From Phycisphaerales bacterium (GTDB lineage: Bacteria; Planctomycetota; Phycisphaerae; Phycisphaerales; UBA5793), in the NCBI GenBank assembly GCA_044229655.1, contig JBGASM010000013.1:45-64044 (forward strand): DNA of 64,000 nucleotides. Reading direction: 5' to 3'. A program made the position numbers and the translations under genes. Numbering within the stretch: position 1 is the stretch's first letter; every line of letters begins with the position of its first letter. Under the pieces are notes generated by a model. That model searched no databases. It was given only the letters and a program-made list of their open reading frames with translations, and was not told the DNA's origin. Shown piece by piece: positions 39,040 through 43,639 of this stretch.

Positions 39040-39141
39040 GAAGCGCAGATGTCGGGGGATTCCGTTCCTCCTCCCCCGACTGCCCTTCATCATCAATTCC
39101 AAGAAGCGCAGATGCAGAGGAGGATTGCATCCTCCCCTGCA
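39040..39141. repeat. Two tandem units of GAAGCGCAGATG plus hairpin
   Basis: Exact 12-mer at 39040 and 39103 (63 bp apart), each running into a stem (39051-39080; 39113-39141). Confidence 0.8.
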
Positions 39142-39236
39142 ACCCCACCTGCTACCCTGCCCGAGGTATCGAGCACGTTGCAGGCGCGTAGAAATCTTGC
39201 TACGTTTTCGCAAGAATTGTGGACAGGTTGACCATC

Positions 39237-40505
39237 ATGGCAACACGCTCTCCAACCTTATCAAGCGCGATCGTTCATGCGTGGCAAAACGAACGTTCTG
39301 CGGTTGCAATTAAGAGATTGGCACTGCTTTTCGACCGGGTCTACTACATTCATCCAACGTACGCGACATTCAAAGGCGGTCCTCAAGACTTTCTCAATCG
39401 CCGACGTGAGGTCGCGCCAGGCGGGCCATCTTGGATAGAGAACTTCAGTTGGTGGGATGATGTTGTCTCACAGAGTGCGGTTGACATCCATCAATCTCGG
39501 AGGGGTTCAATTGGCGAACTGATCACGGATTTTGAGAAGGCAGAGATCCTCGTGCCAGCGGCCTTCGGACCCGGTGCGGCATTTTCCCAACTCCCAGATG
39601 ACACATTTTTCAGGGCACGGACGGTATGGATGCAGCAGGAACTCGGAGATGACGTGTTTCTTAGCGCAACAAACACAAACAAGAATTGGCAGAATGATCC
39701 AATCGTTCATGGCCAGATGACTTTGAGAAACTCCGTTGGCCATGAGATTCAACAAATTTGGGTGAACCCGCCGGCTGCATGGAATACCTCAGAGGCGCTT
39801 ACGGATATCTCCTATCTGGCAGCCTCACTTAATGCGATTCCGACATTCTTCGAGCCCTCGCACATTGCTGGACTAAAGAGACGATTTGCCAAAGTATCGG
39901 AATTGATTAACGAGAATGACCAAATTCCCAAGAACCTCGGCTGCGCTTCGGAAACCCAAATGCGCAATACTGTCGCAGGGCATCTTCTTTTTACCCTTGG
40001 CGGACAATTATTTGACGACGACACACTTCGGCGCGTTTCAACCGCGGAGATCATTCATTTACGCAAGACCATGCTATCTGCGCGGCGCGATCTTTTGGAT
40101 GAATGTCTGTCAGCGATAGACCGGATTGTTGCTGAGGGCAACGGCTTAGAAAGCGTGGACCAAGAAATTCAGGCATATGTTCGGGACACATTACGTCCAG
40201 CGCTACGAGACTTTCGAGAGGAATCGCAGCACGCAAAGGACAATTTACTAGGGGATATGTTCGTAAGGTCCGTGCAAGCCGCTTGTGAATTCTCAGTTGG
40301 GGCCTTGGCGGGGTCTTTTGCCGCAGTCGCATTTACGTCCTCACTTTGGTCCTTGTTTCTTGCGGGCGGATTCGCGGCAGCCTCCAGGACGTTGCCGTCT
40401 CTAACTCGCGACCTAAAAGACGCTTATGTAGCCCAGCAGGCACGCCAGCGTCAAGGGCTAGCCCTTGTGGACGCGGTGCGGAACCTACGAAAGCAAGAGA
40501 GTTAA
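39237..40505 (+). CDS. Hypothetical low-GC protein with C-terminal hydrophobic segment
   Basis: 422-codon ORF with AT-rich codons unlike its neighbours (line 39661-39720 has 25/60 GC); no motif recognised with confidence. Confidence 0.8.
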   Translation: MATRSPTLSSAIVHAWQNERSAVAIKRLALLFDRVYYIHPTYATFKGGPQDFLNRRREVAPGGPSWIENFSWWDDVVSQSAVDIHQSRRGSIGELITDFEKAEILVPAAFGPGAAFSQLPDDTFFRARTVWMQQELGDDVFLSATNTNKNWQNDPIVHGQMTLRNSVGHEIQQIWVNPPAAWNTSEALTDISYLAASLNAIPTFFEPSHIAGLKRRFAKVSELINENDQIPKNLGCASETQMRNTVAGHLLFTLGGQLFDDDTLRRVSTAEIIHLRKTMLSARRDLLDECLSAIDRIVAEGNGLESVDQEIQAYVRDTLRPALRDFREESQHAKDNLLGDMFVRSVQAACEFSVGALAGSFAAVAFTSSLWSLFLAGGFAAASRTLPSLTRDLKDAYVAQQARQRQGLALVDAVRNLRKQES

Positions 40506-40750
40506 CAGTACGCAGATACCCCATAGATTTGCGCATGAACCGTTGGGGCGGTCGCGCTCCTTCATTGGTGTAAACGGCCCTCCGCTCCCCCCGCGCAGGA
40601 CCGTCCCCTGACTTCCCGGCCAAGCCCCAACGGTCCTGACCCCAAAACTCTTCGTTATTCCTCCCTTCTCCCTCTTTTCCGCGCTGTATTTGCGCAAAAC
40701 AGCCCAAAACGGTGCCATTTCGCGCTCGATCTGCGCTCTTTCTCCGCACA

Positions 40751-40939
40751 TCTCCGGAGTTTCGCCCTTCGTTTCCGGAGTTTGACCGCGCTTTTCCGGA
40801 AAACCGCCGCACTCTTCCGGGAAACCATCCCATCCTTCCGGAATTGCGCCCCGTCTCTCCGGAAGCGTGTCGCGTGTCTCCAGAGTTCTCCTTCGTTGTT
40901 CCGGAGTTCCGCGCTGCCTTTCCGCAATTCCACCGCTCC
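40751..40939. repeat. Array of nine 21-bp-period units with palindromic YTCCGGAR core
   Basis: Cores start at 40753, 40774, 40795, 40816, 40837, 40858, 40879, 40900 and 40921; intervening bases differ. Confidence 0.93.
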
Positions 40940-40966
40940 AGGTAGGCGCGACTGGCTCCCGTGCGA

Positions 40967-41764
40967 TCAGTTACTGAGGAAGCTCATGGCATCCGCGAAG
41001 AAGTGCGCGAAGAACACAGGCCAGAAGGATCGCTTCCACACGAAAGTGAGCCCAAGTAAGAGGCCGAAAGTGGTCACGTAACCAGCGGCCGCAAGCCCCT
41101 GGTAGACGTGGTACCCTCCGAACGCAATCGAGCTGACGACCACGGCGCGCGCTGTTGAGTGGAACGCCGCTTCCAATCGCGGAATGAAGTAGGCGCGCAT
41201 CACGATCTCTTCAGCGAATCCGTTCAGCGCCGAAGCGAGAACCAGGCTGGCCAACCCGAGCGGTGAGGGCCAGCGTGGCATGAGGTCCGTCAGCAGCGCC
41301 CCCAATGGGTAAAGCGGTCCTTCCGAGACAAGGAATGCCTTCGCGTAATAGAAGGAATAGAACAGCACGTAATTGATCACAACGAGGCCGGCGCCGAGGA
41401 GCACATCGGCAATCCCCGGACCTCGGCCCAGCCCGAAGAATGACCAGCCCAGCCGGCTGCGCCACATGATGTAAAGCACCGGAATGCCCACGCTGATCGA
41501 CCGCTGGATCAGGAAAACATAGATTGAGCCATGCTCGGCCGACTCCGTCAGACGGTCCGGACCCTCGGATGAATACGCTGTCAGAGCCTGCCACAACGCG
41601 GGAAGCACCGCGATCACAAAGACGACGCCCATCTCCAGGACATCGCGCCGCAGCCACCAGCGTCCCGAGGATGCGGAAGTCGCTGATGTTGGTGACTGCG
41701 ACGACGTTGAAGACGTTGTCGCATCAGACGCGAGAGGCGAAGGAGAATCCAAGGACTCGGGCAC
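40967..41764 (-). CDS. CPBP (CAAX/Abi-type) intramembrane glutamic endopeptidase
   Basis: FAEEIVMRAY, FGGYHVYQG, FFAHFFAD motifs and multiple TMs. Start uncertain (ORF open to 41917). Confidence 0.88.
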   Translation of the reverse strand: MPESLDSPSPLASDATTSSTSSQSPTSATSASSGRWWLRRDVLEMGVVFVIAVLPALWQALTAYSSEGPDRLTESAEHGSIYVFLIQRSISVGIPVLYIMWRSRLGWSFFGLGRGPGIADVLLGAGLVVINYVLFYSFYYAKAFLVSEGPLYPLGALLTDLMPRWPSPLGLASLVLASALNGFAEEIVMRAYFIPRLEAAFHSTARAVVVSSIAFGGYHVYQGLAAAGYVTTFGLLLGLTFVWKRSFWPVFFAHFFADAMSFLSN

Positions 41765-41980
41765 GGGGGGATGGCTCCGCAAGTCAATGAGTGTGTGCAG
41801 GGTATTGCGTCCCGCCGATCGCGACCTCCGTGCCCATGAAAGTCGCCCGCACTCCATCGTGTCGAGCGAATACATCGATGCTGCGCAAAACCCTGGCGCG
41901 CTGAAAAGCAAATCCAAAATCCCCGGATTTCCGATGCGCGCACAAAGGCGATAGACCCCCCGTTATCGCGGACCCACAAG

Positions 41981-42056
41981 GGCGCGGAAACTCAGCAAAA
42001 CCGCTGAAAACTCCGCAAAACTCCGGCAAACCCGCCAAAACCCCTCTGCCGAAAAA
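41981..42056. repeat. Phased A-tract decamer array (consensus ~CTCCGCAAAA)
   Basis: A3-4 tracts end at 41990, 42000, 42010, 42020, 42030 and 42040; a further A5 at 42052-42056. Confidence 0.9.
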
Positions 42057-42214
42057 CCCCCTCCCCCCGATCTCCCGGCGTTTCGCCCCCATTCCCGCAA
42101 GAGTCGGCCCGCAAAATTCTTTTCCTTGCTCCCGGCGCGCATCCCCGTGCGCACGAGCGTGATCTAGTGGCTCGCCTCCGTGCGCACACGCACACCCCTC
42201 CATAAGGACTTACA

Positions 42215-43639
42215 TCACCCTTCCCTGCGTGTAGCGATGATCGTGCCGAGGGTGAACGTGACGAAGCCGATGGCCGCCAGCACCGCGCAGTGGGTCAGCA
42301 TCTCGGGGATCGTGAAGCCGCGCCAGATCGCTCCCTCCAAGGCCTTGATGGACCACGAGACGGGGCTCACAATACTGGCCCGCTGCATCCACTGGGGCAT
42401 GAAGAGCAGCGGGACCATGCCCCCGCCGAGCATCGCGAAGATGGTGTTCACCGCCCACCCCGCGCCGCTGACGCTGGCCTCGGTCTTGCCGATGACGCTC
42501 ATGAGCATCATGATGCCGGTGAAGCATGTTGCGATTGCGGCGACCGCCAGCAGCAGCGCGCGGTAGTCGCCCACGTGCACCTTCAGGAACAGCACGCCCA
42601 GGGTCATGAGCAGTGTGACGACGATGCACACGGTGGTGAAGCAGGCGAGGGCCTTGCCCATGAGGATCTGGCGGATGGAGATGGGCGCGAGGCGGAGGCG
42701 CAGGAGGGTGCCGCGCGTGCGCTCGACCACCAGCGAGATCGCGAAGCCGGCCGCGCAGCCGAGCACACCCCAGAGGATGGACTGCGGGAAGGAGATTTCG
42801 AAGGAGGACTTGGGCCAGGCCTTCCCGGTTTCATCGATGCGGGCGGTCACGTCGACGAACTCAATGTTTCCCATGGAGGAGGAGGAGGGGGCGGACGCCG
42901 GGGGGGTGCCTGCATCGCCATTCATGTCCGATGAACTCTTCTCACCCGCGCCGAAGGGCCCCTGGGCGTAGAGGTCGGGGTCGATGCCGCCAAGGAAGCT
43001 GTCCAGAGCGCCCATGAAGGAATCGAAGATGAGTTTCTGGGCGGGGTTCAGATCATCGGCCGTTCTGATCTCCTCCCTCCCCTTCTGAACCTGGGCGCGC
43101 ATCTTGTCGGGAGAGCCGAATTGGGATCGCAGGCTCTTGAAGGACGCCTCCATGATGAGACCCTGGAGCATTCCCTTCTCAGCGCTGCGCGAAGGATCGA
43201 CGCCGACCTCGAGGACTGATTTCCCATCGCCGCCGCCGGCGAACAACGCGAAGGGGCTGGCGCCGTAGCCGGGCTTGATGCGGATGTAGGCGGGATTCTC
43301 TCCCTTGCGGACGAGGTCCTGCGCGGCGTCGAGTGTGAGCGGCGGGGGGGGTTGGGACTGACCGTCGGAGCCGGGGAGTGTCGATTGGAGAGTGACGGCG
43401 GAGGACTCATCGAGCGCCCTAAGAAATTCGCGTGAGGCCTCGGAGGCATCTTCATCGACCGCGAGCACGGTCATCCCGCCGGATCCGTTGCCACCCCCGC
43501 CCTCACCGCCCACTCCGCTGAAGATGGAGCCGAAGAAGAGGGCGTAGATGAGGGGAAACCCCAGGATCCAGAACAGGCCGAGTTTGTCGCGGACCATGAG
43601 TTTCAGGTCCTTGCGCGTAATGGCGAGGATGGCGCTCAT
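42215..43639 (-). CDS. ABC-2 type transporter permease
   Basis: KDLK...RDK.GLFW, large extracytoplasmic loop, ERTRGTLLRLRLAP, LGGGMVP, SPVSW. Confidence 0.92.
   Translation of the reverse strand: MSAILAITRKDLKLMVRDKLGLFWILGFPLIYALFFGSIFSGVGGEGGGGNGSGGMTVLAVDEDASEASREFLRALDESSAVTLQSTLPGSDGQSQPPPPLTLDAAQDLVRKGENPAYIRIKPGYGASPFALFAGGGDGKSVLEVGVDPSRSAEKGMLQGLIMEASFKSLRSQFGSPDKMRAQVQKGREEIRTADDLNPAQKLIFDSFMGALDSFLGGIDPDLYAQGPFGAGEKSSSDMNGDAGTPPASAPSSSSMGNIEFVDVTARIDETGKAWPKSSFEISFPQSILWGVLGCAAGFAISLVVERTRGTLLRLRLAPISIRQILMGKALACFTTVCIVVTLLMTLGVLFLKVHVGDYRALLLAVAAIATCFTGIMMLMSVIGKTEASVSGAGWAVNTIFAMLGGGMVPLLFMPQWMQRASIVSPVSWSIKALEGAIWRGFTIPEMLTHCAVLAAIGFVTFTLGTIIATRREG

Follow-up and report, generated by a model that had tools for sequence, protein, structure and literature searches.

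A degenerate 21-bp tandem array in a Phycisphaerales genome and a helix-plus-FN3 gene family linked to arrays of the same period

Constant-size, non-coding tandem repeats of 20-21 nt with variable sequence are present in many bacteria (Subirana and Messeguer, 2021; PMC8161180), and the accessible text of that paper notes that such a unit spans two helical turns and proposes a protein polymerising on the DNA. The published text leaves unanswered why many bacteria keep repeats of exactly this length while the sequence changes freely (PMC8161180). The array described here, from a Phycisphaerales genome, is like those repeats in having at least four constant-length units of 20-21 nt (9 to 11 units of 21 bp in this case), in the presence of several same-length families of different sequence in one genome, and in a short conserved motif, a mostly non-coding location and the absence of any coding for amino-acid repeats. 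It differs in that the accessible text of PMC8161180 names no linked gene, whereas the arrays in this study are tied to a protein family consisting of a long helix plus a fibronectin type III (FN3) domain. The repeats and the idea of a polymerising protein are already published, and what appears to be new is the link to one gene family. No paper linking the arrays to this partner gene was found in the literature searched; the link is not described in the accessible parts of PMC6749651, nor in those of PMC2996958, which deals with coding palindromic repeats of 25 residues. The array-family link supplies a candidate reader and makes the published puzzle testable.

Several other systems contain comparable repeats. 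CRISPR arrays consist of near-identical repeats and unrelated spacers, with a unit well above 21 bp, and plasmid iterons are a contiguous repeat array used as a protein platform. The parS heptad arrays of pSM19035, which are bound by omega/ParB (10.1101/2022.05.29.493902), likewise offer a contiguous repeat array as a protein platform, but the array here has no 7-bp sub-period (0.26), no ParA/Rep neighbour and no conserved unit sequence. BldC, which multimerises cooperatively where direct repeats lie upstream of genes (PMC5859096), is a model for our reading of the array, although BldC is a 68-aa MerR-like protein and the partner here is a helix-plus-FN3 protein of 220-240 aa without an HTH match. 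The type III toxin-antitoxin systems ToxIN/CptIN/TenpIN also have their tandem repeats in front of a single small cognate gene; their repeats are 31-62 nt long, in about 2-6 copies followed by a terminator (PMC3401426), whereas the arrays here have 21-nt degenerate units in about 5-40 copies and rarely a terminator, although 42-bp periods do occur.

The window array and its neighbourhood

The window, that is, the whole stretch of 64,000 nucleotides that was analysed, contains the following features around the array (positions are those of the window).

39113 to 39153, plus strand: E2, a dispersed hairpin repeat of about 42 bp with 20 matches in the genome
39219 to 40505, plus strand: a 428-aa ORF of low GC (0.52) and no known family, with two relatives at 47-49% identity
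40541 to 40660, plus strand: E1, a dispersed repeat of about 120 bp with inverted ends CCGTTGGGG / CCCCAACGG and 28 full or partial matches in the genome
40655 to 40933, minus strand: a 92-codon open frame over the array, judged to be no gene (no Pfam match; codon tests)
40660 to 40708, plus strand: a linker common to the array locus on contig C38 (75% over 156 bp, reaching window position 40695)
40709 to 40750, no strand: two decayed units with the register kept (8/21 and 11/21 matches to the consensus)
40751 to 40939, no strand: nine 21-bp units with consensus TTTCCGGAATTCCGCCCCGCC, without indels (lag identity and unit-to-consensus comparison)
40967 to 41917, minus strand: a CPBP/Rce1-like membrane protease gene (PF02517, E 2.6e-18), whose end lies 28 bp from the array
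41884 to 42213, plus strand: E3, a dispersed A-tract repeat of about 330 bp with 16 matches in the genome, the right-hand closure of a variable island

A preliminary description had reported nine units in register and free of indels at 40751-40939, which both the lag identities and direct inspection bear out. Identity within the array was 0.62 at lag 21 and 0.50 at lag 42, whereas the remaining lags between 5 and 44 gave 0.15-0.37, and the periodicity score reached 61, compared with a maximum of 14.6 in 300 shuffles (periods 19-23); no 10.5-bp or 7-bp sub-period was present within the units (lag-7 identity 0.26). Because the scored periodic segment (40708-40933) begins at 40708 and two weaker units are found there, the array reaches left to 40709, so that as a whole it comprises nine gap-free and two decayed units (40709-40939).

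The same description spoke of palindromic TCCGGA cores in all nine units, separated by unique spacers. TCCGGA is exact and in phase in five of the nine, and a sixth copy at 40900 raises the exact count to six; the other three units carry the one-base variants TCCGGG, TCCAGA and TCCGCA. The spacers are not unique, as non-core positions still agree with the consensus in 4-7 of the 9 units, and since the variable part keeps a consensus, the array qualifies as a degenerate tandem repeat, not as a series of repeats and spacers. A CRISPR array was ruled out in view of a unit that totals 21 bp, the consensus kept by the variable part and the lack of any Rfam match to the array.

Metagenome contigs from two other studies contain the same locus. 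One (X2) covers 39382-42759 with a single differing letter, at 41202, and the other (X3) covers 40472-41417, also with one differing letter; the array is unchanged in both. As these contigs include the array and both junctions, the array is no assembly artefact. DNA of the source genome turns up in sludge and bioreactor metagenomes. Among 40 relatives there was no orthologue of the window array, the two matches spanning only the CPBP gene, and no array lies beside either of two CPBP orthologues within the family.

As had been noted, the array sits between convergent ORFs (39219-40505 on the plus and 40967-41917 on the minus strand), beyond which the next flanking genes are gdhA and an ABC-2 permease. 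For the 428-aa ORF, a word search of 5.8 billion proteins returned only the two relatives and Pfam, NCBIfam and PADLOC nothing usable; it is possibly defence cargo. No Rep, ParA or ParB gene flanks the array, and on this ground a plasmid iteron or parS array was ruled out. An antitoxin from type III toxin-antitoxin systems also fits poorly, the period being 21 and not 31-62 nt and the number of terminator-like sites in 40400-41100 being zero.

E1 is found directly upstream of arrays on contigs C11, C20 and C38 as well, but mostly it has no array after it (4 of 17 arrays lie near E1, compared with 28 E1 matches). Its inverted ends are REPIN-like. For REPINs, a RAYT/Y1 transposase is expected in the genome; RAYT (PF01797) was not found in this genome, which is 96.7% complete. 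Tyrosine recombinases gave 16 matches in the genome, none of which adjoins the window island. E1 forms clusters (G000 C24:167.9-170.3 kb, C7:177-182 kb, C33:123.8-127.3 kb and C38:103.5-107.1 kb), where it punctuates runs of co-oriented genes for small membrane proteins in a cassette-array-like manner, and these proteins end in a CxxCGYDLxGNxxGxCPECG zinc-ribbon motif. E2 is often fused to a half copy of E1. The A-tracts of E3 are phased at 10 bp, and E3 closes such islands on one side with its orientation fixed relative to E1. A sigma-70-like match (TTAACA-16-TAGATT, 40502-40529; 0.1 expected by chance) is aimed at E1 and the array. Of two RNA runs that were compared, the first matched 42 bases of one E1 copy and the second had no match, which has no bearing on transcription.

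Sister arrays and the linked gene family

A census of the genome that was blind to sequence (periods 10-45) identified 34 arrays, of which 17 repeat every 21 bp and 2 every 42 bp. Five 21-bp arrays and one 20-bp array lie inside ORFs and were left out of the intergenic count, so 14 of the 19 arrays with period 21 or 42 are intergenic; together with three weaker arrays from a first scan (C27, C1 and C4), this gives 17 intergenic 21-bp arrays. Their units are mostly unrelated in sequence, thus it is the period that is conserved and not TCCGGA. The same holds across the class, in which the 21-bp period is kept while the unit sequence changes. One gene-less array (L029, G000 C11:68227-68802) has 27 units whose motif shifts along its length, and its halves, judged by eye, are roughly reverse complements of each other.

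The preliminary description had also offered a methylation-site array as a reading. The 189 bp contain six exact palindromic copies of TCCGGA, as would suit a cluster of methylation or restriction sites, but the site is broken in three of the nine units and is common genome-wide (1365 sites vs 1211 expected), and the cores of the sister arrays are unrelated to it, which argues against this reading; we regard it as next to inconceivable.

Seven of the 17 intergenic arrays lie about 150-310 bp upstream of an unannotated gene of 230-240 aa. Two gene-less arrays resemble gene-linked ones, C38 being similar to C20 (0.88) and C9b to C11a (0.80; 99th percentile 0.68 in both cases), while the best profile similarity of the window units to gene-linked arrays was 0.56, which is not above background. 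The genome holds nine full copies of this partner gene and one fragment, all outside the contig of the window. On that contig (C45) the gene was absent by tblastn and by two profiles, and no helix-plus-FN3 gene is present within about 500 bp downstream of the window array.

The partner protein belongs to no Pfam or NCBIfam family, and PADLOC gave no match for the two partner proteins tested. In its structural model (mean pLDDT 93), a short helix is followed by one of 60 residues (33-92), next by a proline linker and finally by an FN3 domain, the latter with structural matches of Z up to 12.1 and an rmsd of 2.0 over 95 residues. Foldseek and VIA-align searches with the model returned FN3 matches only, mainly over residues 111-221, and neither an HTH match nor a known DNA-binding fold was found in whole-model fold searches; the ESM Atlas returned hypothetical proteins, with one cluster in which 19% of members carry fn3. 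Taken as a whole, the protein is not basic (median K+R-D-E -3), but five columns of the long helix have K/R in 63-82% of 114 rows. By eye, the N-termini have no evident signal peptide. At 50% identity the large family falls into 1,306 clusters (matches with E up to 1e-30), long multi-FN3 proteins among them, and its distribution is patchy, with presence in 31 of the 121 genomes of the bacterial class and 20 or more matches in some of them.

To extend the comparison to other genomes, partner-gene loci were collected GTDB-wide (80 fetched, 5 of them dropped for having less than 600 bp upstream). The best upstream period was 21, 42 or 63 in 39 of the 75 loci, against 0 of 69 downstream, and 36 of the 75 had no 21n array at the threshold applied. 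The arrays sit upstream of the partner gene family at a median distance of 195 bp. Going by record titles, loci with an upstream array were observed in Planctomycetota (21/49), Acidobacteriota (8/15), Cyanobacteria (4/4), Chloroflexota, Armatimonadota and Ignavibacteria (1/1 each) and the rest (3/4), so the link spans six phylum-level groups, with the reservation that a lone MAG locus could be the product of mis-binning. A second locus set gave 56/95 upstream vs 5/91 downstream, and is less independent, as it includes the nine loci of this genome, two loci that were reached by way of their arrays, and numerous paralogues drawn from a small number of genomes.

Over 169 loci, the best period was 21/42/63 in 89 and 20/40/60 in 5, and 22 and 62 occurred once each; best periods of 31/32 or 52/53 bp, which are expected under pure helical phasing, were found in none. 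The 20-bp period occupies the same position upstream of the gene in five loci of one genus (L051, L052, L054, L058 and L067). A phase lock between array and start codon was not seen (offset 0 in 1 of 27 pairs), in a comparison where pairs are non-independent, leader lengths differ and start codons are estimated. Weak 8/16/24-bp periodicity was noticed upstream of gene copies without a 21-bp array at L151, L154, L155, L156 and L202.

The scan for 21-bp-phased TCCGGA arrays suggested in the preliminary description matched 5 of 300 other genomes at nine distinct loci. The partner gene adjoins two of the loci, at 103 and 251 bp; at a third it lies about 7 kb off, behind a type I restriction gene; one locus is a Pro/Ala coding repeat, and five have no partner gene nearby. 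The four genomes with non-coding TCCGGA arrays contain 4-18 partner matches each, and the genome with the coding repeat contains none.

Coding tests, strand and turnover

The minus-strand frame at 40655-40933 is open as the preliminary description stated, and was there read as a possible heptad-repeat peptide. Across the nine-unit span all three minus frames and two plus frames are open, and stops over the window array number 1 vs 10.2 in column-permuted controls (class mean 6.7 vs 11.2), as would suit a peptide. This openness is not frame-specific, however, and TA steps are depleted in the arrays to 0.36 of expected. The best synonymous fraction between window units was 0.36 vs a null of 0.44, a 20-bp subfamily exists, and in eight related pairs array mismatches fall evenly over positions mod 3, in contrast to the third-position excess of the genes. 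Significant 3-base periodicity of unit variation was detected in 1 of 50 arrays. The array class is non-coding; with no orthologue among 40 relatives, the class tests apply to the window copy by analogy, and an encoded heptad peptide is highly improbable.

Another way to read the arrays is as RNA, that is, as a leader of repeats which the partner protein would bind or process, much as in type III toxin-antitoxin systems. The layout of repeats followed by a gene is the same, the window array surpasses dinucleotide shuffles in folding (z -4.5), and it is among the 16 of 50 arrays whose folding, or self-complementarity, exceeds that of column-permuted controls. On the other hand, both strands of the arrays fold alike (mean z -2.7 vs -2.8), the order of units has no effect on folding energy (mean z -0.15), and at L182 and L186, whose proteins are 93% identical, the arrays match in reverse orientation. 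Arrays are thus free in orientation, and the inverted pair together with the irrelevance of unit order points to reading as double-stranded DNA. No more than 9 of 74 leaders contain a hairpin-plus-T run, the repeats of type III systems measure 31-62 nt (PMC3401426), and neither Rfam for the array nor PADLOC for the two partner proteins gave a match, which leaves an RNA leader with a slim chance. As for palindromy, put forward at first as a property of the cores, it is general only in part: a dyad consensus test classified 7 of 50 arrays as palindromic, and given self-complementarity above controls in 16 of 50, it is common in the class without being a defining trait.

Where protein identity is below 50%, arrays are no more alike than background, and where it exceeds 80%, 6 of 13 pairs have similar arrays. 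In three pairs the arrays change more quickly than third codon positions do (0.43 vs 0.27, 0.40 vs 0.17 and 0.34 vs 0.10), and in three others more slowly (0.15 vs 0.29, 0.09 vs 0.20 and 0.25 vs 0.36). Neutral minisatellites, arising from 21-bp-biased duplication upstream of the gene and with the window copy as a decaying relic, would account for the fast pairs, for the many gene copies without arrays and for the graded change of units along long arrays, but not for the three pairs in which arrays are the more conserved, nor for units only about 65% alike that still hold register without indels. The chance of such an origin appears slimmer still than that of an RNA leader.

A candidate reader and a probable orphan copy

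A non-coding, helically phased protein platform, with binding as a putative property, fits the array class best. The preliminary description had already leaned to a phased platform, and that part is supported, since the class is non-coding and keeps its 21-bp (or 20-bp) period while units turn over; the proposed TCCGGA site is not, as it is not kept. We tentatively favour the view that the array offers docking sites on one helix face to the helix-plus-FN3 protein of its own module, which is its candidate reader. The window array would then correspond to the 5' portion of a small mobile module made up of array and gene, the gene having been lost. As 21 and 20 bp amount to two helical turns, docking sites would lie on one face of the helix; the partner protein may oligomerise through its predicted 60-residue helix and load cooperatively, one unit per two turns, with a loose sequence preference, and the protein-array complex might control the leader promoter in an autoregulatory manner. 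Binding, oligomerisation and regulation by the partner protein are what we infer from this arrangement. If true, an FN3 protein reading DNA geometry would be a new recognition mode.

A phased platform could also be read by another host protein, such as a nucleoid protein or a regulator of the leader promoter, with the FN3 gene as the regulated output. The partner protein is not basic and has no known DNA-binding fold, the coupling of array and protein is loose, and 20-21-nt arrays are widespread, for example in Bacillus (accessible text of PMC8161180), all of which agrees with a different reader. Unrelated units within one genome would nevertheless be hard for one sequence-specific regulator to recognise, and all four genomes with non-coding TCCGGA arrays, which belong to one family, hold the partner gene family; we consider another host reader unlikely.

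Homology between module copies often begins at or within the array and ends 0-250 bp past the gene. Together with the 20 or more copies dispersed through some genomes, identities of 52-57% across phyla and antisense cargo between array and gene at three loci (type I R-M on C44, a PQQ-type propeller on C4 and type I hsdR on G226:C220), where the pairing of array and gene is deduced from position, this might indicate that the array serves a mobile but non-autonomous module as its end or attachment structure and is bound while the module transfers or takes in cargo, much as the subterminal repeats of transposons are. The module has no recombinase, however, and pairwise comparisons displayed neither target duplication nor terminal inverted repeat; such a role seems decidedly unlikely. 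A bolder form of the docking reading, somewhat unlikely in our estimation, is that the helix-plus-FN3 protein reads the period of two turns in place of the sequence, polymerises on the array and travels as a mobile unit gathering defence cargo, orphan arrays being trans docking sites that organise variable islands. Such modules would form a widespread class of protein-DNA systems not described before, and the missing protein behind bacterial 20-21-nt repeats would be named.

The window copy is likely an orphan of the array-plus-gene module. As its units match no gene-linked array above background, its membership, which is probable, is tied to the period, to upstream sequence common to C38, C20 and C11, and to analogy. 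At C20 and C11, E1 stands in the same place as at the window array and the partner gene is retained, and the closeness of the gene-less C38 and C9b to the gene-linked C20 and C11a shows that gene loss occurs in this genome. In the window, the CPBP gene occupies the spot where the partner gene would be expected. Leader and gene may have been lost as cargo entered the island, and the antisense CPBP gene 28 bp past the array, followed by the island-closing E3, would be consistent with orphaning by cargo. The array might now be inert or bound by paralogues in trans; it is probably a leftover, useful mainly as an entry to the class. Type I restriction genes lie antisense between a 21-bp array and the partner gene at two loci, L024:1052-9900 (G000 C44) and L232:2830-10789 (G226 C220).
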